From the NCBI GenBank assembly GCA_041686745.1, contig JAWLDH010000010.1, forward strand, positions 94,239-126,238: DNA of 32,000 nt, written 5' to 3'. Within the stretch, counting starts at the first letter, position 1. Every line of letters begins with the position of its first letter. This stretch comes from Rhodospirillaceae bacterium. GTDB taxonomy: Bacteria; Pseudomonadota; Alphaproteobacteria; Rhodospirillales; Rhodospirillaceae. Position numbers and translations under genes: made by a program. Below are positions 13,625 through 31,127 of this stretch, piece after piece. Below the pieces are notes generated by a model. The model was not told the DNA's origin. It did no database searches and saw only the letters and a program-made list of their open reading frames with translations.

Positions 13625-14104
13625 ATGGTCGCGCGCAGGGGCGCTGAATTCGCCGCTTTGATTCATCAACTGCTGGTCCTGGACAAGGTGCGGAGCGTCG
13701 AGGACGTCGCCCGCGACATGGGCATGGAGTACCACACGCTCTACGCCCGCGTCGGGCGGGACACGCCATTCTCCGCCGAAGAGATCAAGGCGCTGATCCG
13801 CGTCGTGGGTGATATTCGGATCTTGAAGTATTTCACCGACGACAGCCCCTATGTCGTCGTCGAACGCTCCAGCCCCTGCGATGTCGCCGCGCACGACGAA
13901 CTGCACAAGGGACTGGTGGCCGAAGCCCACAACACGGTTTTTGAAGCCGCCGACCTTCTGGAAGCCATCGCCACCGCCCTGGCCGACAGGAAGATCGACC
14001 ACCGGGATGCGCTGCTCATCCGCCAGGAGGTGGACCACTGTGAGCGTGCCCTGGCGGCCATTCGCCGTCTGCTCGACCTCAAGGAAGGAAAGGTGCCGGC
14101 ATGA
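13625..14104 (+). CDS. HTH-containing regulator, phage CII (CP76)-like (159 aa)
   Basis: Only the last 159 codons of track ORF 12947-14104 look real. The HTH-like segment is VEDVARDMGMEYHTLYARVGRDTPFSAEEIKALI, followed by a helical C-terminus. The layout resembles P2/186-type CII proteins from memory. ATGA overlap with the next gene. Confidence 0.45.
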   Translation: MVARRGAEFAALIHQLLVLDKVRSVEDVARDMGMEYHTLYARVGRDTPFSAEEIKALIRVVGDIRILKYFTDDSPYVVVERSSPCDVAAHDELHKGLVAEAHNTVFEAADLLEAIATALADRKIDHRDALLIRQEVDHCERALAAIRRLLDLKEGKVPA

Positions 14105-16820: not shown

Positions 16821-16904
16821 TTCCCGTTTGACGGTGCTCGAACCGTCTTCGCGCTACCTTGACGATCCGGGCGATGGCCCAAGGTCGTTCAAAAGGAGGG
16901 TGGC

Positions 16905-17786
16905 ATGATCGGGTTCGTCAAGACATGGTGGAGCGGCGTGGAGGCCAAGCGCCATCAACACGATGCCGAAAAGCGTGAAGCAATTCTGGAGGTCCAGGTG
17001 GCAGAGGCCCGCCGGGATCTCGGGTTTTTCCAGATTGACGCCGACGTTCCCCCGGAAATCAAGGACAGGGTGGCCGACCTCTTCCCGGTGACGGCGGACA
17101 CCCTGCCGCGGGTCCGGGCCTTCCTGAACGATCCCGCGATGCGCGCCCTGCGCGGTGGCATCGAGGAGCTGCGCGATATAGAAGTTTTCGTGCGCTCCCT
17201 CGGCGGCGACGGGCAGGTGTCGTTCACCCTGCGGGATTTCGCCGCCCATTTCGGGTTCGGCCCGCAGCGCGAGGCGAGCAAGCTCCTGCACTCGCCCGAC
17301 CTTCTGGGACAGGTTGGCTACGGCACTCTGGTCAAGGGAGCAACCGGCGCGATGATCGTCGGCGCGGCGATGGTGGGCACCGTCAAGCAGTCCATGCACA
17401 ACGGCTACATCACCGCCAGCGTCGGCGGCATGGGCTTCAGCCGCCATTCCTCGGCAATGAGCGTGCCGGAGCGTCAGGCGATGGCGCTCCTGTATGTCTT
17501 GCACAAGCGGGGAAAGGTTCCCGAACGCGACTACAAGGGGCTTTTCTTTGCCATGGTCTTCGCCAATGGCCACTGCGACGACAGCATCGTCGGCGACGGC
17601 CTGGGCGGCCGCAGCATCGGCGACAAGGACCTGATTGCCCAGCGCATCGGCCGCCACTTGGTGGGCAGCCGCATCGCCCCCCTGGAAAAGGCGCTGGACG
17701 TCATCATGGCCCGGCGGACTCTGCTGGCGCCGTGTGACCTGGAGACCGTTGACCGCCAACTGGCGCCGCTCAGTCGCGTGGGGTGA
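16905..17786 (+). CDS. hypothetical protein with a Gly-rich hydrophobic segment (293 aa)
   Basis: Strong RBS AAAAGGAGGG 4 nt before ATG 16905. Its composition is natural compared with the antisense ORF 16854-17759. The segment TLVKGATGAMIVGAAMVGTV resembles a glycine zipper or TM helix. Confidence 0.6.
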   Translation: MIGFVKTWWSGVEAKRHQHDAEKREAILEVQVAEARRDLGFFQIDADVPPEIKDRVADLFPVTADTLPRVRAFLNDPAMRALRGGIEELRDIEVFVRSLGGDGQVSFTLRDFAAHFGFGPQREASKLLHSPDLLGQVGYGTLVKGATGAMIVGAAMVGTVKQSMHNGYITASVGGMGFSRHSSAMSVPERQAMALLYVLHKRGKVPERDYKGLFFAMVFANGHCDDSIVGDGLGGRSIGDKDLIAQRIGRHLVGSRIAPLEKALDVIMARRTLLAPCDLETVDRQLAPLSRVG

Positions 17787-17814: not shown

Positions 17815-18099
17815 TTACAGAATATAGGTGCCACTCAGCTCGGGGAATGGCGCGCCGCCAATGGCCAGGCAGTGCATACGGCCGCGGGCGCCAACGGCAT
17901 AGACCCGCAGCATGTCTTCCGGGTCCAGTTCTCCTTGGATGCGCGCGGCCAGGGTGCGGGCGGCATGCGGGGTCATGAATACCTCGAACACGCTTTTCTG
18001 CACCCGTACGGCCTCGTCTTCCAGTAGGGCGGCGACCCGCGCCCGCACGCGGGGGCGGGCGATGTCGTAGCAGAAAACCATCAAGTATTCGGTGGCCAT
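17815..18099 (-). CDS. cas2: CRISPR-associated endoribonuclease Cas2
   Basis: 94 aa. The pattern YLMVFCYDI...RVRARVAALLEDEAVRVQKSVFEV...LRVY is the Cas2 ferredoxin-fold pattern. The GAGGGA RBS overlaps the RT-cas1 stop. Confidence 0.9.
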   Translation of the reverse strand: MATEYLMVFCYDIARPRVRARVAALLEDEAVRVQKSVFEVFMTPHAARTLAARIQGELDPEDMLRVYAVGARGRMHCLAIGGAPFPELSGTYIL

Positions 18100-18105
18100 G
18101 ATCCC

Positions 18106-20076
18106 TCAGTAGTCCATGTGATAGGGAACATAGGGCGCGTCGCCCAGGACGGCCTCGGCATAGAGGGCCACCTGGTCGGCGACCAGGTTGCGCCAGGTGC
18201 CCTTGGCGCCGGTCGCCGGGCTGACCACCGGCCGCTCCAGCCAGCCCTCATAGCCGGAAATGATCCGCTTCCGGGCCTCCGGGTCGAACTGGACCGCGCC
18301 GTCGCGATCGCGGGCGGCGAACATCTCCATCGACAGGCGGCGGCCGTTGAACAGGGTCACGGTCAGGGCCTCGGCAATGGGGGTGCGGAACTCTTCCATC
18401 AGGTCATTGACGCAGGCCGGTGCGCCGTCGCGTGGGGTGTGCAGGGCGCCGAAGCCCGGATGCAGCCCCTCGCGGTCGACGGCGGCGGACAGGTCGCGCT
18501 CCAGCAGCGTGGCCACGAACGACAGCACGGCGTTGACCGGATCCGTCGGAGGGCGCCGTTGCCTACCCGGCAAGGACGCGCCATGGCGCAGCAGGCGCGA
18601 CAGGGCCGGCCAGTACAGGGCGGCGGCCTCGCCTTCCACTCCCATCACGCGCGGCACCGAGTCCATGAGGGGCAGCTTGCGGCGCAGGCGGCCGATGCGC
18701 CGCGCCACATCGGCCACCGTGTCGTCGTCGGCGGTCCGGTTGAGGCGGCGCAGCAGGGAACGCTGGTTGTGTATGCGGGCCTCCACGATGGTGGCGGCCA
18801 GGGCGGTGCGCCGCGCGTCATCGAGGCAGATGCGCGCCTGCGCCAGATGCAATCCGACCCTCTCCGCCGACGGGCGGGCGAGGCTGGCCAGGGTGGCGCC
18901 GTGGCCGGTGACGATATCGACGCGAATGCCTTCGGCCGCCAAGTGGGCCAGGGCGTCCTCGTCGATGGCGCAGCCGGGACCCAGTTCCACCCGGTCGAGG
19001 CGGCCCGGCGCGATGGCCAGCAGTTCACGGTCGCCATCCCGCACCGTCAGCGCCATGTTGCGCACCGCTAGGCGCCGGCCCGGTTGGACTAGGTAGAGAG
19101 AGCGTAGTACCGGCCGGCGGGGGCTGTCGCGCTCGGCCAGGGGGGTGATGATTTCGGCCTCCTCCAGTGTTTCCGGCTGGCGGGGTGGTGGCACCGGCAC
19201 CGGCGCCGGGCCTTGGGCCGGGGCTGGATCTTCGTCCCCCGTCGAATCCACCACCAGCGAGCGCACGAACAGCCGTCCCAGGAAGCGGAACCCCTCGTCG
19301 AAGGACACCAGCCGTGTCTTGTTCGGGTTCAGGCGCAACCCCAGCCGTTCCAACTGCCCGGCCAGGCGCGCCAGGGCACCGGCTGCGCGGGCCTCGGACC
19401 GGCACAGGACAATGAAGTCGTCGGCAAAGCGCACCAAGTGGGCTCCGGTGCCCTCCATCGCCTCGTCGACCTCATCGAGGAACAGGTTGGCGAGCAGCGG
19501 CGACAGCGGGGACCCTTGCGGAAACCCCCGGCCTTCGGGCGCGGCACCGGAAAGCCACTGATTGACCAGGGCGATGAGGGGCGCCTCGCCAACACTGCGC
19601 CCCAGGCGTGCCAACAGCTTGTCATGCGGCACCGAATCGAAGAACCGTTCAATGTCGCCATCGACCACCCAGGTATAGCCCTGGCGGCGCAGGTGGCTGA
19701 TGCGTTCCACCGCCTGCCCGACGGACCGGCCGGGCCGGTAGGCATAGCTCGCCGGTTCCATCTCCGCATCCAGCAGGGGACCCAATACCGCCACGGCGGC
19801 GGCCTGCGTGATGCGGTCGGCGATACAGGGGATCAGCAGGGTCCGCGTGCCGCCCGACCGCTTGGGAATGTCCACCCGGCGCAGCGGGCCAGGATGGTAG
19901 CGGCGCGCCCGCAGCGCCTGACCCAGGCGGGCCAGCCGTTCGGGAAGGTGGGCGGAGAACTGCCCGATGGTCACGCCATCCCCTCCTGGCCCCCCTTGAT
20001 TGCGGGCCACCCGCAGCCATCCGGCATGTAGCCCGTCCCAGGATGTAATGGCATCAAACAGTGGTGTATCGCTCAC
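18106..20076 (-). CDS. cas1: reverse transcriptase-Cas1 fusion protein
   Basis: The N-terminal half is a group II intron-like RT: NQGGPGGDGVTIGQF, RRVDIPKRSGGTRTLLIPCIADRITQAA, and the active-site block VRFADDFIVLC (YxDD-type). The C-terminal half is Cas1-like: LYWPAL...NAVLSFVATLLERDL...GLHPGFGALHTPRDGAPACVNDLMEEFR. GTG start at 20076. No Cas6 domain is fused. Confidence 0.95.
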   Translation of the reverse strand: MSDTPLFDAITSWDGLHAGWLRVARNQGGPGGDGVTIGQFSAHLPERLARLGQALRARRYHPGPLRRVDIPKRSGGTRTLLIPCIADRITQAAAVAVLGPLLDAEMEPASYAYRPGRSVGQAVERISHLRRQGYTWVVDGDIERFFDSVPHDKLLARLGRSVGEAPLIALVNQWLSGAAPEGRGFPQGSPLSPLLANLFLDEVDEAMEGTGAHLVRFADDFIVLCRSEARAAGALARLAGQLERLGLRLNPNKTRLVSFDEGFRFLGRLFVRSLVVDSTGDEDPAPAQGPAPVPVPPPRQPETLEEAEIITPLAERDSPRRPVLRSLYLVQPGRRLAVRNMALTVRDGDRELLAIAPGRLDRVELGPGCAIDEDALAHLAAEGIRVDIVTGHGATLASLARPSAERVGLHLAQARICLDDARRTALAATIVEARIHNQRSLLRRLNRTADDDTVADVARRIGRLRRKLPLMDSVPRVMGVEGEAAALYWPALSRLLRHGASLPGRQRRPPTDPVNAVLSFVATLLERDLSAAVDREGLHPGFGALHTPRDGAPACVNDLMEEFRTPIAEALTVTLFNGRRLSMEMFAARDRDGAVQFDPEARKRIISGYEGWLERPVVSPATGAKGTWRNLVADQVALYAEAVLGDAPYVPYHMDY

Positions 20077-20240
20077 GCAGTGCCCCGTGGAAAAATGGTT
20101 AAAGGGTTATAATAAATATGATATTCTTCGTTATGAGGGCGCCATTAGCCTGGAAATGGAGCGGATGACGTGACTTTCAAAGACCTCAGTGGATTTATGA
20201 CCGAAAGAATGATCTTGCGCAACTCCTGCCAAACCCCTAA
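20077..20240 (+). promoter_or_regulatory. leader of CRISPR array 1, shared with the divergent RT-cas1 promoter region
   Basis: AT-rich relative to its surroundings, with TATAAT at 20108-20113. The degenerate repeat lies at the far (right) end of the array, which places the leader here. Confidence 0.45.
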
Positions 20241-20690
20241 GTTTGAGCAGCATCCGCTTCGGCGGGTGCATCAAAACACGCAGTCCCCACGGTTGAACCC
20301 TTTGCTGGGTTTGAGCAGCATCCGCTTCGGCGGGTGCATCAAAACGGTGATGGCCAGATAGATGAGAATCGGCATCAGTTTGAGCAGCATCCGCTTCGGC
20401 GGGTGCATCAAAACAACGGGTGCCCGCTGTTCACTTCCGGGTTGTGTTTGAGCAGCATCCGCTTCGGCGGGTGCATCAAAACGGTTGTGGTCGAACAGGT
20501 GGCCCGAGCTCTCGTGTTTGAGCAGCATCCGCTTCGGCGGGTGCATCAAAACACAATCGCCACCTCAATGAGGTGCGCCCCCCGGGTTTGAGCAGCATCC
20601 GCTTCGGCGGGTGCATCAAAACATTCCATGGTAGTTCAGGGCGTCCTTGAACAGTTTGAGCAGCATCCGCTTCGGCGGGTGCTGCTCTGT
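20241..20690 (+). CRISPR. CRISPR array 1: 7 repeats of 37 nt, 6 spacers of 31-33 nt
   Basis: Repeat GTTTGAGCAGCATCCGCTTCGGCGGGTGCATCAAAAC starts at 20241, 20309, 20378, 20446, 20516, 20586 and 20654. The last copy matches only the first 29 nt and is the degenerate trailer repeat. Spacer lengths are 31, 32, 31, 33, 33 and 31 nt. An internal 8-bp stem (GCAUCCGC/GCGGGUGC) is closed by a UUCG loop. The 3-prime 8 nt AUCAAAAC would form the crRNA tag. Confidence 0.95.
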
Positions 20691-20727
20691 TATGGGGTTG
20701 CGATAGGATTGGGGCGTGCCTCAGTAT

Positions 20728-20766
20728 GAAGATGCCGGGGCGGTTGCTCCGGCATCTTCATTTTTT
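20728..20766 (+). terminator. Rho-independent terminator after array 1
   Basis: GAAGATGCCGG (20728-20738), a 10-nt loop, CCGGCATCTTC (20749-20759), then ATTTTTT (20760-20766). It sits between the array trailer and the convergent stop at 20784, so it may serve both transcripts. Confidence 0.65.
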
Positions 20767-20783: not shown

Positions 20784-22367
20784 TTACGTGTCCGACAGAA
20801 TTGCGATGCGGCAGTCGTATGCCTTTAGTTTTCCGTCGTTATTGATGTAAGTGATGGCGTAGGCGTGTTGCAAAGCATGGATTGCAGCAGCCACGCTAAA
20901 GGATTTTTGACCCGCCGTGATGTCCACGGCAATCTGAGTGTCCTTGACCTTCGCCGCGCGGAGCGCAGACAGCGCGGTGCGCATTTTTGTTTCTACCGCT
21001 TTTACATTCTCATAGTCCACGGCATCGACATCAATGATCGAGGCATCATCTTTAGGTGGGCCGACGGGTGGAACGGTAGCGATATCGACAATGCAGTTCT
21101 TGATGAGTCCTTGAACCTGGATCGTTCGCTCGCCGTCACCTATTAAAGGTCGTGTCAGGTGGAGGAGTTCAACGAATTTATCCATTTGCTTTGATGACTT
21201 GGTCGATGGAATCAGTATTATATTTTTTGTGGGTAAAATACGTATTGCGCGGAGTGTTTGGAACCAGTTCATTGATCTCAGGGCGACGGCACCAAGAAAT
21301 GACCTTGCTGATTTGCTTTTTTCAATAATTTTCAAGAAAATTATTTCATTTTTGTCGGTGGTATGGGATTTATCCGTAACCTTACCTTCCGTATATTTTT
21401 TAGCGAAGCTGTAAAATTTAAATTCTGTGTCGTTATCAAATAATTCTCTTACTAGGTCAAGTTCGTCTGTGTGCGCCATTTTTGGCTTATCAGTTTCAAA
21501 AAATATATCATTCAATTGTATGTATTCTTTTGTAATATTAAGTATATTATTCTTATTTGTTGAATCGACGTACTCTTTTATGAATGTCATAATCTTATTC
21601 CAATGTTCATCCTGCGTATTATTGTTGCGCAGGGAGATCTCAGGGTCCGCCGGTAGAATGTTGACCCGCGATAGCCCGCTGATGAGGTGGGTTCGCTCTG
21701 TCTTATCGGCCTCATCCACCTCATCCACTCGGACGTTGAAGAGCCCGCTCTTGAGTTTGTCCAGCAAGACCATACAGGCGAGAAGGCACACGCTGAGAAG
21801 GCCCGCCCAGACCCAGGATGGCCACGGCGGGTTTGCGAACTGCCACGCAATCGGGCTCCCCGGTTTCGTCGGTGCGGCTGAATTTTCTGATGCCGTCGTG
21901 GTGCCGCCTTTTGTGGGAGTGACGTCTTGCTCAGTCTCCGCCACCAAGCCTTCAGCCTTCCCATCGGTCACGGCGGCGTGAGCAGCAGCCTCGGTACCTA
22001 CAGCGACTGTTTTGGCATCGGGTTGCGTGGCAGGTGGTGACGCGGGAGGGGGCGATGCAGGAACCTCCTTCCGGATCAGGTCAACGGCGTCGGAGAAGTC
22101 ATCTGCAATGGTTTTGAAGGTCTCCGGCACCAGTCCAACGACTGCTGCGGCTATAAAGACGAAAAGCGGAAGTTTCATCTGTCGCCAAGACAAGGCGATA
22201 ATGACGGCGCTGGACGTTAGAGCCAGGGTGGCGAGAGCGTAGTGCCACGATGGCGAGAAAAAATGGGCAATCAGTGTAGCGGAAGCTACGAAGACGGCCC
22301 ATGGTCGCCAGTCTATAATCCACTTTTTTAATGCATATTTCTGCTTTTTCTGAGTTTTATTGCTCAT
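20784..22367 (-). CDS. four-TM membrane protein with C-terminal CARF-like domain (putative cyclic-oligoadenylate-responsive effector)
   Basis: I prefer the start at ATG 22367 (MSNKTQKKQK), which has a GGGGGAA RBS 1 nt after the csx16 stop. Hydrophobic helices are RPWAVFVASATLIAHFF, WHYALATLALTSSAVIIALSW, LPLFVFIAAAVVGLV and, after a ~100-aa Pro/Ala/Thr-rich stretch, WPSWVWAGLLSVCLLACMVLL. The C-terminal ~300 aa start with THLISGLS and contain IAVDITAGQKSFSVAAAIHA, which matches the CARF D-x-T-x-G-x-K hallmark. Confidence 0.65.
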   Translation of the reverse strand: MSNKTQKKQKYALKKWIIDWRPWAVFVASATLIAHFFSPSWHYALATLALTSSAVIIALSWRQMKLPLFVFIAAAVVGLVPETFKTIADDFSDAVDLIRKEVPASPPPASPPATQPDAKTVAVGTEAAAHAAVTDGKAEGLVAETEQDVTPTKGGTTTASENSAAPTKPGSPIAWQFANPPWPSWVWAGLLSVCLLACMVLLDKLKSGLFNVRVDEVDEADKTERTHLISGLSRVNILPADPEISLRNNNTQDEHWNKIMTFIKEYVDSTNKNNILNITKEYIQLNDIFFETDKPKMAHTDELDLVRELFDNDTEFKFYSFAKKYTEGKVTDKSHTTDKNEIIFLKIIEKSKSARSFLGAVALRSMNWFQTLRAIRILPTKNIILIPSTKSSKQMDKFVELLHLTRPLIGDGERTIQVQGLIKNCIVDIATVPPVGPPKDDASIIDVDAVDYENVKAVETKMRTALSALRAAKVKDTQIAVDITAGQKSFSVAAAIHALQHAYAITYINNDGKLKAYDCRIAILSDT

Positions 22368-22368
22368 G

Positions 22369-22692
22369 TTATTCCCCCAGTGTGTGACTGTCAGTGCCTG
22401 ATGCGGTCCAGGTGCGGACTTCGAATCGCTCAAGATGCGCCCCAAGTTGCACCAAGTCCGCTTCTGAAAGCGTCGTTCCACGCAGGTTCGGCGGGGTTTC
22501 AATCCTCAGATGCCAGTATTCGGCGCCCCGAGAACAGACCTCCGCCGCCAGGTGAACCGGCAGGGTCCCGATGACTTGGTCTCCTGGCCTCACCATGTTC
22601 ACATCAAGGTGTTCAACTATTTGATCTGGCTTGAGTTTCTTTATCATCCAGCTGATGGCGGCATCGTGGCGCGACACGAGAATGCAAGCCAT
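22369..22692 (-). CDS. csx16: CRISPR-associated protein Csx16 (VVA1548 family)
   Basis: ILVSRHDAAISWM...EHLDV..VRPGDQVIGTLPVHLAAEVCSRGAEYWHL....P..LRGTTLSEADL...GAHLERFEV follows the Csx16 pattern as I recall it (FVSRHPGAIEW...GD.V.GTLP..LAA.V...GA.Y..L...P...RG.ELT). An alternative upstream ATG lies at 22716. Confidence 0.7.
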   Translation of the reverse strand: MACILVSRHDAAISWMIKKLKPDQIVEHLDVNMVRPGDQVIGTLPVHLAAEVCSRGAEYWHLRIETPPNLRGTTLSEADLVQLGAHLERFEVRTWTASGTDSHTLGE

Positions 22693-22847
22693 GGTGTCAT
22701 TTCCGCTCACTGGCATCCAATTTTTAGCTGATAATTGAGCCGTCGGGTGGGCAAAAAATCAAGACAAAATAGAAGCGAATTTTTGATTGCTCTTCTGGAG
22801 GTTGAATCGCCATAATTTTCGCGGAGGCGGCAGGCGGGGGAAGTCGG
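22693..22847. promoter_or_regulatory. divergent control region between csx16/membrane-CARF and the cmr operon
   Basis: A 155-bp AT-richer intergenic region. On the plus strand, a possible TTGCTC (22787-22792), 18 nt, CATAAT (22811-16). I have not verified a minus-strand promoter. Confidence 0.3.
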
Positions 22848-24251
22848 TTGCGTAAAATCGAGGCGACGTTTGAGGTGCTTACGCCCCTCTTTACCGGGCG
22901 GGATCCGCATGCGGACAGCGGTGAGTTGAGGCCAGCCGCGGTGAAGGGGGTGCTCCGCTTCTGGTGGCGTGCTCTGGCATGGGGGATCTACGAGCCGTTG
23001 GCGCGCCGACGAGGCAATACTCCTCTTGCGCTCCTTCATGAGGCCGAAGCATGGCTTTTCGGGTCCGCCTCAAACGGCGTGTCACGAGTCCGCATCCGGG
23101 TGAACCTCGATGACCATGATCCAAGCGATCCACCGTTTCCGGATGGGGCGAAGCCCTATCCTTACCTCGGCTATGGACTCAACGCGGACAAGGGCACCAC
23201 GACGGACGTGCCCAAGCCGGCACGGGTCGCTTGTGCCGTAAGGGTTTTCGCAGTTCACTTGTTTTATGATGATCGGTTGCCACCGGAAAATCACCTATTT
23301 CGCGAGATAGCATTGGAAGCCCTGGAGTTGCTGCCGCAGGCCGTGAGGGCTCTGGGTCTTCTCGGTGGCGTGGGGGCGAGAACCCGACGGGGCTTCGGAA
23401 GTCTCTGCCTGACGTCGATGCGGATCAGTGAAGGGCGTCGCCAAAGCGGGAGCGATACTCCGGACGTCGAGGTCCAGACCCTGGATGAGTACGAGGCATC
23501 GTTGAAGGAGTTGCTGCGGCGTGCCTTCAAAGGCGAGGTGCCTGCGCCGCCGTATTCGGCGTTCTCGCCATCAGCCAGCGTGACCATTTGCATCGCCCAC
23601 GAAAGCGCTTCCATGGTGCTTCATGAGGCTGGCTTCGTGATGCAGCACTATCGGAGTTATGGCGGGCGTGGGCCGGGAAGTACCCCCCCGCATCGTTTGA
23701 TGATTCCCGAAGCGTTGCAGCACGAAAAAACCCGCCTGATCCCCGTTGGCGAAGGTGCAGGCGATGAAACCTGGGAAAGAAGTTTCGTCGATGACCATGA
23801 TGATTTCTACTTGGGAAAAAACACAAAGGTTCCTCGTCGTACCGCGTTCGGTTTGCCGCATAATTACGGAGCAAAGAAGTATGTGGCGGCTCGGATAGGT
23901 GGGGAATTGAAAGCCCGACGGGCCTCTCCTCTTCATTTTCATGTCCACAAACTGAAAACAAAGACAGATAAGCCGTACTACGTATTGGTGCTTACCGTGC
24001 TCATGCCGGCAGAAGACAGTTATCTGCCTCCTGGGGCAGAGTTGGTCTGGAGAAGCACTACCGCGAAAGCGCCCAATGGATGGGAAAAACTCCCTGGAGC
24101 TGTTGATCTTGGGGTCATTGAGCAGTTCGTCGCCCGCTTCAACCATGTCACTGAGGACGGATATTCCATCGCACGACTGGACGCAGGGATACCCATGCCG
24201 CAGGTCGAACGTCAGCTCGAACAGAGCCTCCCGCGCAAGGTGAACCCATGA
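22848..24251 (+). CDS. cmr1: type III-B RAMP protein Cmr1
   Basis: TTG start with a GGGGGAAG RBS. The N-terminus IEATFEVLTPLFTGRDPHADSGELRPAAVKGVLRFWWRAL is the canonical Cmr1 signature (LTPLF.GG...AELRP.SIKG.LRFWWRA). Confidence 0.85.
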   Translation: MRKIEATFEVLTPLFTGRDPHADSGELRPAAVKGVLRFWWRALAWGIYEPLARRRGNTPLALLHEAEAWLFGSASNGVSRVRIRVNLDDHDPSDPPFPDGAKPYPYLGYGLNADKGTTTDVPKPARVACAVRVFAVHLFYDDRLPPENHLFREIALEALELLPQAVRALGLLGGVGARTRRGFGSLCLTSMRISEGRRQSGSDTPDVEVQTLDEYEASLKELLRRAFKGEVPAPPYSAFSPSASVTICIAHESASMVLHEAGFVMQHYRSYGGRGPGSTPPHRLMIPEALQHEKTRLIPVGEGAGDETWERSFVDDHDDFYLGKNTKVPRRTAFGLPHNYGAKKYVAARIGGELKARRASPLHFHVHKLKTKTDKPYYVLVLTVLMPAEDSYLPPGAELVWRSTTAKAPNGWEKLPGAVDLGVIEQFVARFNHVTEDGYSIARLDAGIPMPQVERQLEQSLPRKVNP

Positions 24252-26533
24252 TGCGTCGCCTGCTCTTGAGTCTTAAGGCGTTCTTCCAAAGGTTCCGCCG
24301 GACGCAGAAGGTGCTTGCGCATGCTGTGTCAGCGCCGCATCAGGCGGCCGCGCCCATCGGGGTTTCCGAGAAATGGCAGCGATTTGAAATGTCGATTGGC
24401 CCCGTGCAAGCGTGGGTCGGGCAGGCTCGTCGCACGAGAGATCTTTGGGCAGGGTCCTATGTTCTGGCGTGGCTTAGTGCTCGGGCGGCAGCCGCGGCAC
24501 TGGTCCAAGATCGGGAGAGAAGCGAAAGCCTTTTGGAATGTAGTCCGCCCGGTGTGTCATTGAAGAGCATTGAGCAGAAGTCTACGGATGCCATTCTTTG
24601 GGGTGAAATTCAGCATCAACTTGGGAAAGAAAGGGGGCCGCTGCCCCTGGTGGCATCAATGCCAAATCATTTCCGGGTGTTGGTTCCGCCGGGAAGCAGC
24701 CTGGATGTGGAAAAGTGCGTCCAGGCAGCGTACAGCGGATGGTGGTCACTCTGTGATGCGGTCTATTTGTGTTTCGTGAAGCCTGTTGCGCAAACGCCGG
24801 AAGAACGTGCTCACTTGGACGCGCTATGGTATCGGCAGACGGGCAGTCTCCCAAACCTCAAGGCCAAGGACCGACGCCCGGTGTTTTGGGAAGTTCTTTG
24901 GACGGTTGATGAAGCGTCACGCCCTGGGGCGCTCTCTGATTCGGCCATGGATCGGCGCAAGATCTGGCGCGACCATGTGAATCCTGTGATGGCCGATGGA
25001 GAGGCGTCCTGTTCGCTGATGCCAAACTGGGCTGCGTTGTACCTTCCAAATCATAATCGCAATTCCAAGGATTTTTGGGAACGTTTGCAGGAAATGCTCT
25101 CGCTGGCTGTCTACGATAAACTGTCCAAGCCTACGCTTGATCTTCGACCCGGTGAGCGATTGTGTGCCATAGCTTTGGTGAAGCGCCTGTTTCCTGTCCT
25201 TCCGGCCATTGACCTTCAAAAGGTCTTTGGCTGTTTGCCCGAAGGGGTGAAGGTAAGCGGTAGTGCGGACGCGGACCGGCAATGTCGTGCCATTCTGGCG
25301 AATTGGCCCTCTACAGCCTACTTGGCTGCGGCACCCTGGATTAAATATGCCTGGGAGTTGGATAAAGGCGCGTGTATCACATTCCAAGAGGCACATTCTC
25401 CTAGTAAAAATATTAGCAAGCTAAAGTCAGAAGTCCCTTCGTTGCAGAAGGTCTTCGCGAGCGCGGAGATCAAAGGCAAGGGTTGGTCCAGCTTTGCGGG
25501 GCTGGACGGCGGTCTTTTTCAGCCCAGAAGTCTGGAGCGTGCATCCGCGGAAGAGGGCGCCAAGGAGGCGTTTCGCGTCCTTAGTGGCGCTATTGAGGGC
25601 AAGGGCGGCGTGAAGCGTCCAAGTACCTACTATGCCCTTCTGAAGATGGATGTAGACCAGGCTGGCAAAGCTCTCGGTACAGAAGGGCTGCGGGAATTTC
25701 TTCCGACCGTCTTGACGGAATTTTCCCGTGCGGCACCGGCCATTGTCGCACGTAACATGGGCGTGACGATTTATGCCGGCGGTGATGATCTACTGGCAAT
25801 AATGCCTGTTGACACCTCAATCACGGCGGCCGTTGAGCTTGAAGCGGTTTGGCGCACATTGTTCCATAGGTGCAGGGAGGAAAAAAAGCAGCTAGGACCA
25901 CAGAATCTTTGCACTGTTTCCGCAGGGTTGGTGTTTGCCGACTATCAAGTTCCCCTGTCGCGGGTCAGGGCTGAAGCTGACCGGGTGCTTGACGAGTTGG
26001 CAAAAGAATCCAACAACCGCAACAGCATCGCGATCAGCCTGCTGCGACGCGGGGGGCAAGGGGGGCAATGGGTGTCCGCTTGGCGCTCTGTTCCAGCGCG
26101 GTTGCCGGGTGTGCCGCATGTTCAGGAACCTCTCCTCCCAGTCATGACGTTGCTCGACCTCGCTCGATTATTTCAAAGCGATCCCGCGGCGACCAAACGC
26201 TTCTTTTACAAAGTGCGGGAGCGCCTTGGAATGTTGCTTCATGGCGAGCGGTGCTTGGTTGATCAAAAAACGCTGCATGCGCTTTTTGTGGCGGAGTTTA
26301 TTGAAGATAACCTTGATGGGGATCGAATTCAGGAAGTCGCCCGTCAAATGGCGGGCCTACTTTTTATTGCTCAACCGAACGCCCAGCCCCTGGCCGAAAG
26401 AAATTTTATTCCCGGCGATGCGCAGCAAGGGTCTGACAGGGTCAATATTGAAGTTTTTTGGATCGTTCGTTTTCTTGCAATGAACTTACTTCCTGTTTCC
26501 GGCGCTGTGAAAGCCGAAATGGAGAACGTATAA
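24248..26533 (+). CDS. cas10: Cas10/Cmr2, GGDD cyclase motif intact, no HD domain
   Basis: SIGPVQAWVGQARRTRDLWAGSYVLAWL (conserved Cmr2 block) begins at about residue 49, so there is no room for an N-terminal HD domain. The palm-domain motif is VTIYAGGDDLLAIMP. ATGA overlap with the cmr1 stop. 761 aa. Confidence 0.9.
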   Translation: MMRRLLLSLKAFFQRFRRTQKVLAHAVSAPHQAAAPIGVSEKWQRFEMSIGPVQAWVGQARRTRDLWAGSYVLAWLSARAAAAALVQDRERSESLLECSPPGVSLKSIEQKSTDAILWGEIQHQLGKERGPLPLVASMPNHFRVLVPPGSSLDVEKCVQAAYSGWWSLCDAVYLCFVKPVAQTPEERAHLDALWYRQTGSLPNLKAKDRRPVFWEVLWTVDEASRPGALSDSAMDRRKIWRDHVNPVMADGEASCSLMPNWAALYLPNHNRNSKDFWERLQEMLSLAVYDKLSKPTLDLRPGERLCAIALVKRLFPVLPAIDLQKVFGCLPEGVKVSGSADADRQCRAILANWPSTAYLAAAPWIKYAWELDKGACITFQEAHSPSKNISKLKSEVPSLQKVFASAEIKGKGWSSFAGLDGGLFQPRSLERASAEEGAKEAFRVLSGAIEGKGGVKRPSTYYALLKMDVDQAGKALGTEGLREFLPTVLTEFSRAAPAIVARNMGVTIYAGGDDLLAIMPVDTSITAAVELEAVWRTLFHRCREEKKQLGPQNLCTVSAGLVFADYQVPLSRVRAEADRVLDELAKESNNRNSIAISLLRRGGQGGQWVSAWRSVPARLPGVPHVQEPLLPVMTLLDLARLFQSDPAATKRFFYKVRERLGMLLHGERCLVDQKTLHALFVAEFIEDNLDGDRIQEVARQMAGLLFIAQPNAQPLAERNFIPGDAQQGSDRVNIEVFWIVRFLAMNLLPVSGAVKAEMENV

Positions 26534-26534
26534 C

Positions 26535-27833
26535 GTGCGACATCAGACTTTTCTTATTTTGCCTTGGGATACTGGGTCTTTCCGGGACGCCCGTCCGTTC
26601 TATCAGGATGACCAAGGAATGGCTGAAGCCTTCAGTCAGTTTCCTCCTTCACAGCGGACGGCTGTCGGTTCAATCCGAGCCGCGCTGGCCCGCGCGGCTG
26701 GATGGTCCGGGCGCGGCGGGTGGGGGGATTCCGTTAAGGCGCTTTTAGGTGATGGTGAAAATTTGGCCCCATTGAGCTTCTCAGCTCTCACCCTCGTCAG
26801 GAAGTCAGTATCGGAGGATGCGGGTGGCCGATGGGAGGCAATGGTGCCCATGCCTTTCAGCCTCGGCTATTCCGGTCACTCCTTGTCAGTTTTCGATAGG
26901 GCGATCTCCCAGCGGAGGTGTAGCGAAACGAAGCCCCAGTTTATTGAATGGCGCCCGATGGACCAAAGCGTCTCATGCGACAACCGAAATCCGATGGCCC
27001 CGTGGTCGCCACACAGTAAAAAGGATCTCGGGGAGCGGGTAAGCGCGTTGGAGGGGTATGTTGTTAGTGCCCACGCGTTGCGAGCGCGTTTTGCACCGAA
27101 CGGAGGAGAGCTCAATAAGGCGCTGGACTACAGCGATGTCGAACGGCTGGAAGCATCAGCCGCGCAGTTGGATGAAGGCAGGCCAGTGGAGTTCTCAGAG
27201 GAACAGGGATTTGACCAAGAGGTTTGGGGTGGCAGCACGCGCTTGCAAATCCTTAAGGGAATGGGAGCCTGTGCCGTTCGGGAAACTTCCATAGGCATAG
27301 GGAGGGATTCTTTGACGCGCAGGGTTGTGGATAAGCGGCTATACCAAAACTCGATGATTCGCCTTTTGCCAGATCATGGCTATGTCATTTCCGTAAGTAG
27401 CTCCAAGGACGATATGCCCGCGCTACAGGGGCCAGTGACGGTGCCTTTTGGCGGGGAAGGAAGGGCGGCGACCCTTGTCCGTCTGGAGGACGATGTTACG
27501 GATTTGAGGTGGAGCTTTAGGTGGCGGGAACGTGAAGGCAAGATCGCCTTATGTTTGATGAGCCCGGCGGCCTTTGATGAGGCTCCCCGCATCGGGGCCC
27601 CCTTATGGGAGAAGGGGCCGGCGGTGATCGGCGTGGCTGGGGGCCGCACTGCTCCGGTCGGGGGGTGGTCGGGGGAATCAGGAAAGGCCGGCTCTGTGGG
27701 TGGGGCCGCCTACTATCCTGCGGGCACGGTATGGTTTGTTGAGGGGCCTGTGGACGATGTACCTGGATCATTGGGGCGGAAAAAGGATTGGCCCTGGGGT
27801 TTTGGAAAATTCGTCGCCTGGCCTCTCGCCTGA
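26535..27833 (+). CDS. cmr3: type III-B RAMP protein Cmr3
   Basis: GTG start 1 nt after the cas10 stop. The N-terminus FLILPWDTGSFRDARPF....AEAFSQFPPSQRTAVGSIRAAL matches the Cmr3 pattern (P.D.L.FRDGRPF......FPP.P.T..GA.R). Confidence 0.85.
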   Translation: MRHQTFLILPWDTGSFRDARPFYQDDQGMAEAFSQFPPSQRTAVGSIRAALARAAGWSGRGGWGDSVKALLGDGENLAPLSFSALTLVRKSVSEDAGGRWEAMVPMPFSLGYSGHSLSVFDRAISQRRCSETKPQFIEWRPMDQSVSCDNRNPMAPWSPHSKKDLGERVSALEGYVVSAHALRARFAPNGGELNKALDYSDVERLEASAAQLDEGRPVEFSEEQGFDQEVWGGSTRLQILKGMGACAVRETSIGIGRDSLTRRVVDKRLYQNSMIRLLPDHGYVISVSSSKDDMPALQGPVTVPFGGEGRAATLVRLEDDVTDLRWSFRWREREGKIALCLMSPAAFDEAPRIGAPLWEKGPAVIGVAGGRTAPVGGWSGESGKAGSVGGAAYYPAGTVWFVEGPVDDVPGSLGRKKDWPWGFGKFVAWPLA

Positions 27834-27869
27834 AGCATGGCCGAGGGCGGGCACGGGGGGAGAGAAGAA

Positions 27870-28871
27870 ATGTTTATCGTGGGCATGATTGCAGAGACGT
27901 TTATTCATCCGGGAAGCGGCCAATCCCTTGGTGCCATTGATCTGCCAGTGGCAAGGGAACGGGCCAGCGGCCTGCCATACATCGCAGGGTCTTCGATGAA
28001 GGGGGCTTTTCGCCAAGTGCACGACGACAGGGCACAGAAGGAGACGGATAAAGAAAAGCGTGAGGGCCTTAAAAATAAAATCTATAAATACTTCGGCAAG
28101 GAACTGGGGAGTGAAGGGGCAGGCGCAGTCCTTTTTTCAGACGCCCGACTTTTGATTCTTCCGGTGCGGTCCTTGACCACACGGTTTGTTCTGTTGACCT
28201 GTCCAATGCTGTTGCGCCGCCTTGATCGTGACTTGGAGAGAATAGGCGACGCCGGCCTGGGGCCTGCGACTCTGTCAGTGGACGCTGAGGTCATGCTTGT
28301 TCACCCGGAAAGTCCACTGATTGAAACAGAGCACTACCTTGAAGACCGATCCTTCAAAGCCAAGCGGCTCAATGCTGAGACGATACAGGGCGTTGATTAC
28401 CTGCTTGGCAAGGTTGTCGGTGATGCGGCCAAGGAGATGCGGAAATTTGTCGGGATCGTATCGGATGACGATTTTCTCTGGTTCTGTTCGTTCGGGCTTC
28501 ATGTCCAGGCCAGAAATAATCTCGATAAGAGAAAGGTCAGTAAAAACCTGTGGTACGAAGAACTTCTGTCTCCGGATACCGTATTCTATACAATGCTCGG
28601 TGATCGCTTGGCTGATGGGGACTCATGTGCTGAGGACGTGTTAGCGGAATTGAAGTATCTTCAGGTTGGCGGCAACGAAACATTGGGCCAGGGGTGGTTC
28701 AGGTTATGTAAATCGTCTTCGGTGTCCAAGAAAACGCAGGTAGTCTCCACTGCTCGTGCGGTCACGGAACAGCAGCCCAATAAAGGAGGCGTTCCGGAGA
28801 GCGCCAGCCCAACGGTGGCGGCGAAGCCGAAAGTGGGCAGCGGTAAGAAGGGAGGGCGCCGTGGCCGTTGA
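27870..28871 (+). CDS. cmr4: type III-B backbone RAMP Cmr4 (target-RNA cleaving subunit)
   Basis: I prefer ATG 27870, which has a GGGGGAGAGAAG RBS, over 27837. TFIHPGSGQSLGAIDLPVARERASGLPYIAGSSMKGAFR includes the catalytic-loop Asp (IDLPV). The G-rich C-terminal motif is VGGNETLGQGWF. A basic low-complexity tail follows. Confidence 0.9.
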   Translation: MFIVGMIAETFIHPGSGQSLGAIDLPVARERASGLPYIAGSSMKGAFRQVHDDRAQKETDKEKREGLKNKIYKYFGKELGSEGAGAVLFSDARLLILPVRSLTTRFVLLTCPMLLRRLDRDLERIGDAGLGPATLSVDAEVMLVHPESPLIETEHYLEDRSFKAKRLNAETIQGVDYLLGKVVGDAAKEMRKFVGIVSDDDFLWFCSFGLHVQARNNLDKRKVSKNLWYEELLSPDTVFYTMLGDRLADGDSCAEDVLAELKYLQVGGNETLGQGWFRLCKSSSVSKKTQVVSTARAVTEQQPNKGGVPESASPTVAAKPKVGSGKKGGRRGR

Positions 28872-29319
28872 TAAACGCGTAGCACATGCCTTGAAATCGG
28901 TTGAGGCGTTTCTGGCCGGACTGGAGCCAAATCCGGAACGCATTGGGGATGCGGGAGAAACATCTGGAAGGCGAATCGCGGCCGCCCGAAAGTTCGATGC
29001 GTATGTAAAGGCTCTTCCAGCTATGATTGTCTGCAATGGCTTGGGGCAGGTCAGCGCGGTGCTTGCCAAGGATGCCGCTGCGTCAGACGAAGTCAAGGTG
29101 CTCCATGACTGTCTGAGGGATTGGCTGGATGGTATCTTCGGCGTGCAGGATAACTGCCTTGTTAGATGCGTTCAGGCGGTCAATCAGAAGGATTATGCCA
29201 TTGCGACCCACGAGGCTTTGCAGTGGGCTGGGTGGGTCAAGAAGTTCTCGGGCGCATTGGTTGCTCCCTTGATTCCGAAAGAGGAAGGAGGGCGTGGTGA
29301 CGCGGCCGATTTGGGATGA
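28861..29319 (+). CDS. cmr5: type III-B small subunit Cmr5
   Basis: GTG 28861 has an AAGGGAGGG RBS and overlaps the cmr4 end by 11 nt. YVKALPAMIVCNGLGQVSAVL matches the Cmr5 pattern (LP.LI..NGLGQ.LAFL). The protein is all-helical and 152 aa. Confidence 0.8.
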   Translation: MAVDKRVAHALKSVEAFLAGLEPNPERIGDAGETSGRRIAAARKFDAYVKALPAMIVCNGLGQVSAVLAKDAAASDEVKVLHDCLRDWLDGIFGVQDNCLVRCVQAVNQKDYAIATHEALQWAGWVKKFSGALVAPLIPKEEGGRGDAADLG

Positions 29320-30091
29320 GGCGCCGGGGCTTCCGAAGCAGGGAGGAGGCAACATTGGCCTGAGGTTCACCAAGCACTTTGACTTCTGGGAGGGCCGGGA
29401 GTGGAGGGCCCAAAAAGGGGCGGTGGCGGCGTGGGTCGAAAGTCTGCCGAATGATGGCGGCAGAGAAGCCCCGCTTTTGGGGCGCCGCAGGGATTTGATC
29501 GCCGCGCTGGAGGGGCTGACCTGGGCCATGCGGACGGTCAGCCGCCTCATCATCGGCGTTGGAAACCCCCATCCTGTGGAAAATGGGCTGACGTGGCATC
29601 CGACTTTGGGAGTCCCCTTTCTTCCCGCGAGCGGTCTTAAGGGGTTGGCGAAGGCCTACGCTGCGGAGGACGTCATTCCCGGCACGGAAGACGAGGTGAT
29701 CTTCAAAAGAATCTTTGGCGGTGACGATGACCAGTCAGGCGGGACAGGCGGGCACGGCAGCGTTCTGTTTTTCGACGCGCTTCCCCGCCTGACCGGCAAG
29801 GGAATGTTGGATTGGGACATCATGACGCCGCATTACAATCCCTGGTACATGGCGTCTGCCCCTTCCGAAACGCCTCCGGGTGACTGGTACGACCCGATCC
29901 CGATTCAGTTCCTGACGGTCGCCCAGGAATGCACATTTGACTTCGCAATAGCTCCGGACCCGTCGGCGGTTGATGCGGACCAGGCAAGAAAAGATATGGG
30001 CCTCGCAAAGGCGTGGCTTGAAAACGCAGCGTCCGATCTTGGTGTCGGGGCCAAGACCGCCGTTGGATATGGTCAAATGGACAGGGTCTAA
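29294..30091 (+). CDS. cmr6: type III-B RAMP protein Cmr6
   Basis: GTG start with a GAGGAAGGAGG RBS. NIGLRFTKHF, SRLIIGVGNPHPVENGLTWHPTLGVPFLPASGLKGLAKA and the C-terminal GVGAKTAVGYGQM are typical Cmr6 blocks. Confidence 0.85.
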   Translation: MVTRPIWDEAPGLPKQGGGNIGLRFTKHFDFWEGREWRAQKGAVAAWVESLPNDGGREAPLLGRRRDLIAALEGLTWAMRTVSRLIIGVGNPHPVENGLTWHPTLGVPFLPASGLKGLAKAYAAEDVIPGTEDEVIFKRIFGGDDDQSGGTGGHGSVLFFDALPRLTGKGMLDWDIMTPHYNPWYMASAPSETPPGDWYDPIPIQFLTVAQECTFDFAIAPDPSAVDADQARKDMGLAKAWLENAASDLGVGAKTAVGYGQMDRV

Positions 30092-30172: not shown

Positions 30173-31127
30173 GGTGCTATGCACCGGCCGAAGCCGGTGC
30201 TGGTTAAACGTTCTCGTCAGCAGAGACGTTGCCCTCAAGCAGGGATAGTTTTGATGCACCGGCCAAAGCCGATGCTGATTAAACGCCGCGGCCTTTGGCT
30301 GCGGTGCGATTGCCGCTTTGTTGTTTTGATGCACCGGCCGAAGCCGATGCTGATTAAACCACCTGAACAACTTCGACATCGACAACAGCAACGTTTTGAT
30401 GCACCGGCCGAAGCCGATGCTGATTAAACTGGCCGACGAACTCCAAGCCAGCGAGGCCATCCGTTTTGATGCACCGGCCGAAGCCGATGCTGATTAAACA
30501 TTTCCGAAGTCACCCCGACTCCGGCGCCGGTGGTAAGTTTTGATGCACCGGCCGAAGCCGATGCTGATTAAACAGAAGTTCGCCCAAATGAAGGCGATCG
30601 GCTAAGTTTTGATGCACCGGCCGAAGCCGATGCTGATTAAACACAGCGAGTCGATCTGCCGCGCAATCGGCGACAAGGCGTTTTGATGCACCGGCCGAAG
30701 CCGATGCTGATTAAACCCACCACCGGTACGACGGTGCGGCGGATTATGTTTTGATGCACCGGCCGAAGCCGATGCTGATTAAACCAAAATGCCGATGGAC
30801 CATCCGGTGGAGAGGGTTTTGATGCACCGGCCGAAGCCGATGCTGATTAAACGAAGGGCATCTCGAGCCGGATCTCGTTCGTGGGTTTTGATGCACCGGC
30901 CGAAGCCGATGCTGATTAAACGCTCTGCAGGACATCAAAAGCGAAGGAGGGAAGTTTTGATGCACCGGCCGAAGCCGATGCTGATTAAACATAACTTCTG
31001 GATCAAACCAGATTATCGTTGGTTTTGATGCACCGGCCGAAGCCGATGCTGATTAAACCGACAAGTACAAGGCCTAAACTAAACACCCCCGTTTTGATGC
31101 ACCGGCCGAAGCCGATGCTGATTAAAC
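30173..31127 (-). CRISPR. CRISPR array 2: 14 repeats of 37 nt, 13 spacers of 31-38 nt, transcribed from the minus strand
   Basis: The plus-strand repeat GTTTTGATGCACCGGCCGAAGCCGATGCTGATTAAAC starts at 30248 (1 mismatch), 30323, 30393, 30463, 30537, 30606, 30680, 30748, 30816, 30885, 30954, 31022 and 31091. A degenerate copy GGTGCTATGCACCGGCCGAAGCCGGTGCTGGTTAAAC lies at 30173-30209. Spacer lengths from left to right are 38, 38, 33, 33, 37, 32, 37, 31, 31, 32, 32, 31 and 32 nt. The reverse complement GTTTAATCAGCATCGGCTTCGGCCGGTGCATCAAAAC is 33/37 identical to the array 1 repeat. The degenerate repeat at the left end indicates a leader on the right. Confidence 0.95.

Follow-up and report, generated by a model that had tools for sequence, protein, structure and literature searches.

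A 32-kb stretch of a ~160-kb Rhodospirillaceae record (here called the window, in whose coordinates all positions are given) carries a type III-B CRISPR-Cas locus in which an open reading frame (ORF) on the minus strand, directly downstream of csx16, encodes a 527-aa protein that joins hydrophobic transmembrane (TM) helices to a C-terminal CARF domain (Table 1). This product is designated P0001 and its close homologue P0002. The TM-CARF gene is situated between CRISPR array 1 and the cmr operon, and the two arrays flank the cmr module. By its sequence the frame is judged to be a real gene, with P0002 as a homologue that has the same csx16 neighbour.

Table 1. Segments of the TM-CARF gene and other features of the locus, in window coordinates (aa, amino-acid residues; GC, guanine plus cytosine; pLDDT, predicted local distance difference test score; RT, reverse transcriptase)
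Feature	Position	Strand	Basis or remark
TM-CARF gene, 527 aa plus stop	20784..22367	-	ORF and translation; P0002 E = 7e-38; PADLOC CARF8--CARF_TM 1.4e-11
Lys-rich N-terminus, aa 1-21, predicted cytoplasmic	22305..22367	-	7 K/R against 1 D/E in residues 1-22
Extra N-terminal helical hairpin, TM1 (aa 22-40, weak) and TM2 (aa 43-61)	22185..22304	-	Hydropathy, AlphaFold; without counterpart in P0002
TM3, aa 64-80, first helix of the family core hairpin, then LPETFK and D88/D89	22128..22178	-	Kyte-Doolittle 2.34
Pro/Ala/Thr-rich low-complexity loop, aa 98-182, predicted periplasmic; ends W175...PPWPSW	21822..22076	-	Composition; pLDDT ~42
TM4, aa 184-206, second core helix, running directly into the CARF domain	21750..21818	-	Kyte-Doolittle 2.22, Hessa sum -1.35
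Juxtamembrane linker and CARF strand β1 with motif I G-L-S233, aa 207-235	21663..21749	-	Strand 227-232, pLDDT 88-93
AT-rich all-helical insertion between β1 and α1, aa 236-354	21306..21662	-	32% GC; 6-7 predicted helices, pLDDT 40-84
CARF core α1-β2-α2-β3-α3-β4-α4-β5-β6, aa 355-527	20787..21305	-	pLDDT 82-94; Foldseek top match Cam1 8t66_A
Motif II D482-I-T-A-G-Q-K488	20904-20924	-	Conserved in relatives
csx16	22369..22716	-	Directly upstream of TM-CARF, same orientation; PADLOC 1.8e-30
cmr operon cmr1, cas10/cmr2, cmr3, cmr4, cmr5, cmr6	22848..30091	+	Pfam and NCBIfam; diverges from csx16
cas10/cmr2	24248-26533	+	GGDD intact (IYAGGDDLL); no N-terminal HD motif
CRISPR array 1	20238..20691	.	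Repeat search; 7 repeats of ~37 nt
CRISPR array 2	30173..31127	.	Repeat search; 14 repeats of ~37 nt, opposite orientation to array 1
RT-cas1 fusion	18106-20076	-	Pfam RVT_1 and Cas_Cas1
cas2	17815-18099	-	94-aa ORF; named by size and RT-cas1 neighbour, like the confirmed Cas2 of locus L003; not itself scanned
Adaptation module, cas2 and RT-cas1	17815..20076	-	Beyond array 1

Start codon and membrane part of the TM-CARF gene

The ATG of the TM-CARF gene falls 1 nt after the TAA stop of csx16 and is preceded by a Shine-Dalgarno-like sequence, GGGGGA, 5 nt upstream; no such sequence is found before the internal Met64. In the locus of P0002 (L001, a 1,963-bp Logan contig) csx16 is likewise directly upstream, with a 4-nt overlap. 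The start of P0002 aligns to M64 of P0001, and the two helices of P0002 correspond to TM3 and TM4. This exact correspondence of starts (MKLKTAIF against MKLPLFVF), together with the weak hydrophobicity of TM1 and the low AlphaFold confidence for residues 1-63, would suit a P0001 with Met64 as its first residue and, like P0002, only two TM helices; codons 1-63 would then be untranslated or belong to a separate upstream region. Such a start is nevertheless unlikely: the Shine-Dalgarno-like sequence accompanies M1 and not M64, the abutment of M1 on the csx16 stop mirrors the overlap in L001, 189 nt of open sequence coding for hydrophobic helices would be left unused, and a Lys-rich N-terminus leading into two helices is what membrane proteins typically show. 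The TM-CARF frame is also open for 135 nt 5' of the ATG (22368-22502, minus strand), into the 3' end of csx16, with an alternative TTG at 22502. No sign of frameshifting was seen at the junction of the two genes. The overlap looks like a fission/fusion junction, many relatives being Csx16-TM-CARF fusions.

A previous reading of the DNA, made from the sequence alone, had described a multi-pass protein with a Lys-rich N-terminus, three hydrophobic helices, a Pro/Ala/Thr-rich stretch and a fourth helix. This layout was recovered in full. Residues 1-22 contain 7 K/R against 1 D/E; hydropathy places helices at residues 22-40 (weak), 43-61, 64-80 and 184-206; and the Pro/Ala/Thr-rich stretch (residues 98-182; A 20%, P 15%, T 13%) is disordered in the AlphaFold2 model, where it has no secondary structure. 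TM4 is modelled as a helix spanning residues 184-208 with a pLDDT of 82-89. Topology was judged by hydropathy and charge counts alone. Positive charges are found at the N-terminus, in the short RQMK loop and in the segment that follows TM4 (DKLKSGLFNVR), and the loop between TM3 and TM4 has 7 positive and 14 negative residues. This distribution fits an N-in/C-in topology, which would place the CARF domain in the cytoplasm and the low-complexity loop in the periplasm.

By alignment TM3 and TM4 are the homologues of the helix pair that forms the hairpin of 2-TM relatives. The sequence GL(V/L)PETFK is identical in P0001 and P0002, an acidic residue follows TM3 throughout the family (alignment column 243), and W175, just before TM4, is kept in 96% of the occupied alignment rows. 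Thus LPETFK, D88/D89 and the Trp-rich segment preceding TM4 are common property, whereas the 85-aa Pro/Ala/Thr loop is missing from P0002 and from typical relatives.

The CARF domain, its insertion and its relatives

In a scan against PADLOC-DB (version 2023) P0001 matched PDLC01947 CARF8--CARF_TM (1.4e-11), PDLC01053 'TM+CARF' (4.1e-11), PDLC01168 'CARF, 2 TMs' (6.5e-10) and PDLC01940 CARF8--CARF_CSX16_TM (1.5e-9), the matches covering the C-terminal half of the profiles. The CARF8 model names presumably come from the CARF census of Makarova et al. 2020. A Pfam scan of P0001 gave no significant match, and NCBIfam gave a sub-threshold CARF match only.

AlphaFold2, run with a 40-sequence alignment, produced a model with a mean pLDDT of 64.9 overall and 80-94 in the CARF core. 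The order of elements, β1(227-232)-α1-β2(382-388)-α2-β3-α3-β4(479-482)-α4-β5-β6, is that of a Rossmann-like, six-stranded CARF fold. In the model THLISGLS forms strand β1 and motif I, NIILIPSTKS forms strand β2, and IAVDITAGQK forms strand β4 and motif II. The top Foldseek match in the PDB was Cam1 (8t66_A; E = 6.4e-4, probability 1.00, root-mean-square deviation ~3 Å, target-normalised TM-score (TMt) 0.59-0.66). Nearly all of the top 50 PDB matches were CARF proteins, with Csm6, Can2, VC1899, Crn1, Csa3, Cad1 and Cami1 following Cam1, and the P0002 model showed the same fold with Cam1 likewise as its best structure match. When the family profile built from the 40-sequence alignment was searched against PDB sequences, the best matches were Crn1 (9e-5) and Cam1 (4.8e-4). 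The family consensus reads LIxGLS ... WQQxLRAI ... VIPS ... VDYED ... DxTxGQKxxSxAAA ... YV; across the 40 relatives D482, T484, G486 and Y507 are invariant and S233, W368, S388 and K488 are conserved in at least 90% (S233 and K488 in 97% each). The C-terminal domain is a true CARF domain with motif I and motif II, in agreement with the call made earlier from its motifs. CARF proteins characteristically bind a cyclic oligoadenylate as dimers.

No enzymatic effector domain was recognised in P0001 by Pfam, NCBIfam or PADLOC, which is also how the sequence-only reading had seen it. As regards HEPN, Pfam found none in P0001 and the CARF-HEPN profiles align to the CARF part only. A HEPN domain hidden in the insertion was considered and rejected: the insertion has no profile match, and R247 and H255, the only conserved R...H pair, have a spacing of 7 (9 in P0002), which is outside the R-x(4-6)-H range and is not conserved.

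A HMMER scan of 1.84 billion cluster representatives returned 249 proteins at E <= 1e-3, just two of them with E < 1e-30, namely P0001 itself and P0002. The latter (BLASTP E = 7e-38) is the one close homologue of P0001 found among ~15 billion proteins. A word-indexed search with the full protein or the 40-sequence alignment returned P0001 and P0002 only, among the best 8000 candidates by common words, a list probably dominated by the low-complexity loop; an alignment of the CARF core yielded one further relative, P0003. A genome scan with the pattern DITAGQKxxS gave two confirmed loci, neither of them from the genome of the window; tblastn against plasmids gave no match, and an exact look-up of P0001 on contigs returned no record. 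Most of 151 representatives are ~280 aa long and consist of two N-terminal hydrophobic helices and a CARF domain. In 26 of the 151 a Csx16 domain stands ahead of the two helices, the fused proteins measuring ~400-450 aa.

All 40 aligned relatives match the same PADLOC models as P0001, with E-values down to 7.5e-55. A 122-aa stretch of the Cam1 CARF domain, reconstructed from the HMMER alignment, matches PDLC01946 CARF8--CARF_TM at 1.4e-54, whereas P0001 scores 8.8e-3 against PDLC01946 and has PDLC01947 as its best sub-profile; the two proteins therefore share the CARF8 clade but sit on different branches. The suggestion that P0001 might represent an undescribed family thus did not survive: P0001 and its 40 relatives match existing profiles, the Cam1 fragment falls in the same clade, and Cam1 is the top structure. 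On these comparisons P0001 is best described as a very rare, unusually decorated Cam1-type relative within the catalogued CARF8 CARF_TM clade, and not as a new family. What is new is a rare sub-lineage with extra helices, a loop and a large helical insertion. In the typing scheme of PMC11229360 Cam1 is told from Csx1 by its transmembrane domain, and P0001 would probably be labelled 'Cam1'.

The AT-rich insertion noted earlier after the first CARF strand was found at residues 236-354, with a GC content of 32% (range within the patch 27-33%), against ~47-64% in the rest of the gene (~55-64% in the parts next to the insertion) and ~70% in flanking DNA beyond the CRISPR locus. It is stop-free in frame, as are only 1 of 20,000 mononucleotide shuffles, while the other five frames contain 1-20 stops; it is therefore translated and kept open by selection. 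Its DNA was probably swapped in from a low-GC source or drifted to such a composition. The last TM helix and α1 are 162 aa apart in P0001, where the family has a median of 77 (quartiles 70-87), and AlphaFold2 renders the extra ~85-120 residues all-helical, at a confidence that varies (pLDDT 40-84). At the same site the insertion of P0002 is longer (~190 aa), helical and patchily alignable, in a gene of uniform ~60% GC. The insertion found no profile match in Pfam and no known fold with Foldseek on the P0001 and P0002 models.

The composition of the patch raises the alternative of a relic gene, decaying or chimeric, whose CARF domain has been disrupted by foreign DNA. The contrast between the patch, the rest of the gene and the genome flanks, the lack of an AT-rich patch in P0002 and the extreme rarity of the family speak for such an origin. 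It is nonetheless highly improbable, given that the patch is open in frame and predicted to be helical, that an insertion interrupts P0002 at the same point and is partly alignable (HW, LN, T..KF and SH columns), and that the CARF motifs are intact on both sides.

Following directly on motif I, the insertion would, by general CARF architecture, lie near the ligand-binding face, and it may serve as a lid or regulatory module. Even P0001 and P0002 show little conservation in either the insertion or the loop, and the extra TM1/TM2 hairpin, the periplasmic loop and the ~120-aa insertion are unusual, lineage-specific additions. In a MAFFT alignment of the region between β1 and α1, T-x-x-K-F is common to P0001, P0002 and P0017, and S-H to these three and P0026; these columns could reflect a functional motif or chance alignment. 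It is conceivable, if rather doubtful, that P0001 and P0002 form a distinct TM-CARF sub-family in which the helical module after the β1 ligand loop is functional, acting in P0001 in concert with the expanded membrane domain of four helices and the long periplasmic loop. Such a module could then be an autoinhibitory lid, a second site for a ligand or partner, or an element coupling cA4 (cyclic tetra-adenylate) to the membrane. Gating in P0001 and P0002 would in that case differ from the mechanisms of Cam1, Cap1 and Chp1.

Proposed function at the type III-B locus

The gene next to TM-CARF is csx16 by profile, matching Pfam Cas_VVA1548 (4.4e-26, 91.3 bits, cut-off 25) and NCBIfam Csx16 TIGR02620 (5.7e-25, 87.4 bits, cut-off 46.35). 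Csx16 is a cA4-specific ring nuclease, and ring nucleases are carried by 81% of Cam1 loci (PMC12409355). The sequence-only reading had named P0001 as the only signal receiver of the locus. That holds insofar as P0001 is the only CARF/SAVED receiver found in the window; csx16 (22369-22716), which encodes a second protein binding cyclic oligoadenylate (cOA), had been missed. Other elements of that reading stood up: Cas10 lacks an N-terminal HD motif and retains GGDD (IYAGGDDLL), and no Csm6, Csx1, Can or NucC-type gene was present among the window ORFs scanned (Pfam, NCBIfam, PADLOC), nor was a SAVED gene or another CARF gene. Since the locus combines an HD-less Cas10 with a single membrane CARF protein and a single ring nuclease, immunity should depend entirely on the TM-CARF effector.

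CRISPR-associated genes adjoin the homologue in all four related loci examined. Besides L001, these comprise L002, in which P0003, a 285-aa 2-TM CARF protein, is encoded after cmr1-6 and is followed by a DUF1874 (Crn2-like) gene and RT-cas1; L003 (Rhabdaerophilum sp. SD176), in which a Csx16-TM-CARF fusion adjoins cas6, cas2 and RT-cas1; and L004 (a Thalassospira metagenome-assembled genome), in which the homologue lies beside RAMP genes. The DUF1874/STIV_B116-like (Crn2/AcrIII-1-type) gene of L002 (7808-8125) occupies the slot of csx16; different ring-nuclease families therefore appear in the slot beside the TM-CARF family.

Taking together the observed domain make-up, CARF fold, family placement and gene neighbourhood, we propose, with a probability of about 0.65, that TM-CARF is an accessory effector of the adjacent type III-B Cmr system, sited in the inner membrane, cA4-gated, membrane-perturbing and reset by Csx16. 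Upon binding of a target transcript by Cmr, the HD-less, GGDD-intact Cas10 would make cyclic oligoadenylate, most probably cA4. An oligomer assembled beforehand would take up this ligand in its cytoplasmic CARF domains, in a pocket that Ser233 and D-x-T-x-G-Q-K488 would line, and the resulting movement would be passed through the short linker between TM4 and β1 to the TM3/TM4 hairpin, leaving the membrane leaky or depolarised and stopping growth. Cleavage of cA4 by Csx16 would switch the effector off. In this scheme the ligand, the oligomeric state, the topology and the pore or depolarising activity are putative. The strongest clue to cA4 as the likely ligand is csx16 itself, adjoining the gene here and fused to it in relatives. 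Cam1, Cap1 and Chp1 are cA4-activated and depolarise the membrane (PMC10808066; bioRxiv 10.1101/2025.11.13.688252; 10.64898/2026.08.05.743128).

Several points weigh against this proposal. TM1 is marginally hydrophobic (Kyte-Doolittle 1.15, Hessa sum +7.6), and the AlphaFold2 helices at residues 21-36 and 41-63 have low confidence (pLDDT ~48-62; 46-63 over residues 1-100). The insertion might change the ligand site or obstruct it. Sequence similarity to Cam1 is insignificant in a direct comparison (phmmer E = 1.5), and motif II of Cam1 is one residue shorter (DLTGGK against DITAGQK). The TM-CARF effectors studied so far are Cam1, Cap1, Csx23 and Chp1 only (bioRxiv 10.64898/2026.08.05.743128, August 2026), and none of the four is from the PDLC01947/Csx16-fused branch. 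Finally, the rest of the genome, beyond the 32-kb window, could encode a further effector.

Alternatively, the protein might be a regulator and not an executor, namely a membrane-tethered ring nuclease or cOA sink whose CARF domain binds the signal and degrades or sequesters it. That Crn1/Sso2081 precedes Cam1 as the best PDB sequence match of the family profile (9e-5) agrees with such a role, as do a segment around motif II of Crn1, DITGGRKSMSVAAA, nearly identical to DITAGQKSFSVAAA, and a conserved Ser after β1 as in Crn1-type enzymes. Yet such an activity would be redundant with the cA4 ring nuclease Csx16 encoded next door and often fused to relatives, it would leave the system without an output, Cas10 being HD-less and the window showing no further effector, and it would give no obvious purpose to the conserved TM hairpin; moreover, the closest structure is that of Cam1. 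We therefore regard this role as quite improbable.

A slightly better case, though still an unlikely one, can be made for a sensor, anchored in the membrane but not permeabilising it, that hands the cOA signal on to a partner recruited through the insertion or the loop. No role has been assigned to the insertions of ~120 aa (P0001) and ~190 aa (P0002) or to the 85-aa periplasmic loop, a few insertion residues align across P0001, P0002, P0017 and P0026, and the visible part of the record is 32 kb. Against a relay, no candidate partner is found in the window or in related loci, and the insertion and loop diverge even between the two closest proteins. Most relatives, furthermore, are minimal proteins of ~280 aa with two TM helices and a CARF domain; with no extra domain present, the basic function must reside in the TM and CARF parts. 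A cA4-gated membrane effector thus remains the preferred reading.

Some further features of the locus were recorded. The 37-nt repeats of the two arrays are related and differ in the central stem (CCCGCCGAAGCGG versus CCGGCCGAAGCCG), and in array 1 the repeat copy closest to TM-CARF is degenerate. A 16-bp perfect hairpin followed by a T-run (20726-20761, plus strand), a possible terminator or boundary element, lies in the gap that separates array 1 from the 3' end of TM-CARF. No cas6 was recognised in the window. The ~300-aa ORFs at 16854-17786 have no Pfam or PADLOC match, and a cas6 adjoining cas2 as in L003 was discarded as a candidate, neither ORF resembling the Cas6 of that locus. A TraG/VirD4-type coupling protein of a type IV secretion system is encoded at 14101-15546 (plus strand), between a restriction-like cluster and the CRISPR locus, and the latter has ~55-60% GC against ~70% in its flanks, which together suggest a conjugative or integrative element. 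The window flank is 75-77% similar to Azospirillum and Rhodovastum plasmids.

The TM-CARF gene opens no new category of defence mechanism. The TM-CARF field is young and active, and the branch of 2-TM CARF proteins fused to or adjoining Csx16 falls outside the four effectors studied. As a clean representative of this Csx16-linked branch the locus offers a clean test system, and the added helices, loop and insertion amount to a natural experiment on how much decoration a TM-CARF scaffold tolerates.

Comparison with known systems

By sequence profile the best PDB match to the family is Crn1 (Sso2081, PDB 7YGH and others), which has a near-identical motif II. Unlike P0001, Crn1 is a small soluble CARF enzyme without a membrane part.

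Cap1 consists of a two-helix TM hairpin and a cytoplasmic cA4 sensor, the inner ring of its tetramer being formed by the second helix; its sensor is described as a streamlined 'CARF-like' fold that has only two helices and takes up one cA4 for each tetramer, and it carries a C-terminal DUF4579 (bioRxiv 10.1101/2025.11.13.688252). By analogy, the second-helix inner ring of Cap1 is a plausible template for pore gating by a hairpin and a sensor. P0001 differs in having a canonical Rossmann CARF domain with full helices and D-x-T-x-G-x-K, and it ends at β6 with no Pfam DUF4579 match. A relationship to Cap1 was dropped on these grounds, the fold description being different and DUF4579 absent; the two are set apart by the published description of Cap1. 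The family α1 motif R-x-x-W-Q-Q-x-L-R (aa 364-375 of P0001; RHNWQQSLR in P0003) bears a superficial likeness to the R(X3)QQ motif of helix αH1 of Cap1, which is reported to bind cA4. The first Gln of this motif is Phe or Gly in P0001 and P0002.

Cam1 (NhCam1; PDB 8T64/8T65/8T66) resembles P0001 in combining an N-terminal membrane anchor with a C-terminal cytoplasmic CARF domain and no enzymatic domain, in being a type III accessory gene product of the CARF8 CARF_TM clade, and in the ring nuclease usual at its loci (PMC12409355). Cam1 binds cA4, forms a tetramer and depolarises the membrane; at 206 aa with one transmembrane helix (PMC10808066) it is far smaller than P0001, as the sequence-only reading had stated. 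P0001, with 527 aa, has 3-4 hydrophobic helices and a two-helix core hairpin, in contrast to the single helix and conserved pore-lining Asp of Cam1, and Cam1 has neither the insertion between β1 and α1 nor a long periplasmic loop. By architecture and by sub-profile membership, P0001 is not Cam1 in the strict sense.

The 2-TM CARF proteins and Csx16-TM-CARF fusions (PDLC01947, PDLC01053, PDLC01168, PDLC01940) share with P0001 the TM hairpin and CARF domain, the linkage to Csx16 and the type III-B/RT-Cas1 neighbourhoods. From these relatives, with which it is 20-26% identical, P0001 is distinguished by its two extra helices, its 85-aa loop and the 162 aa between its last TM helix and α1.

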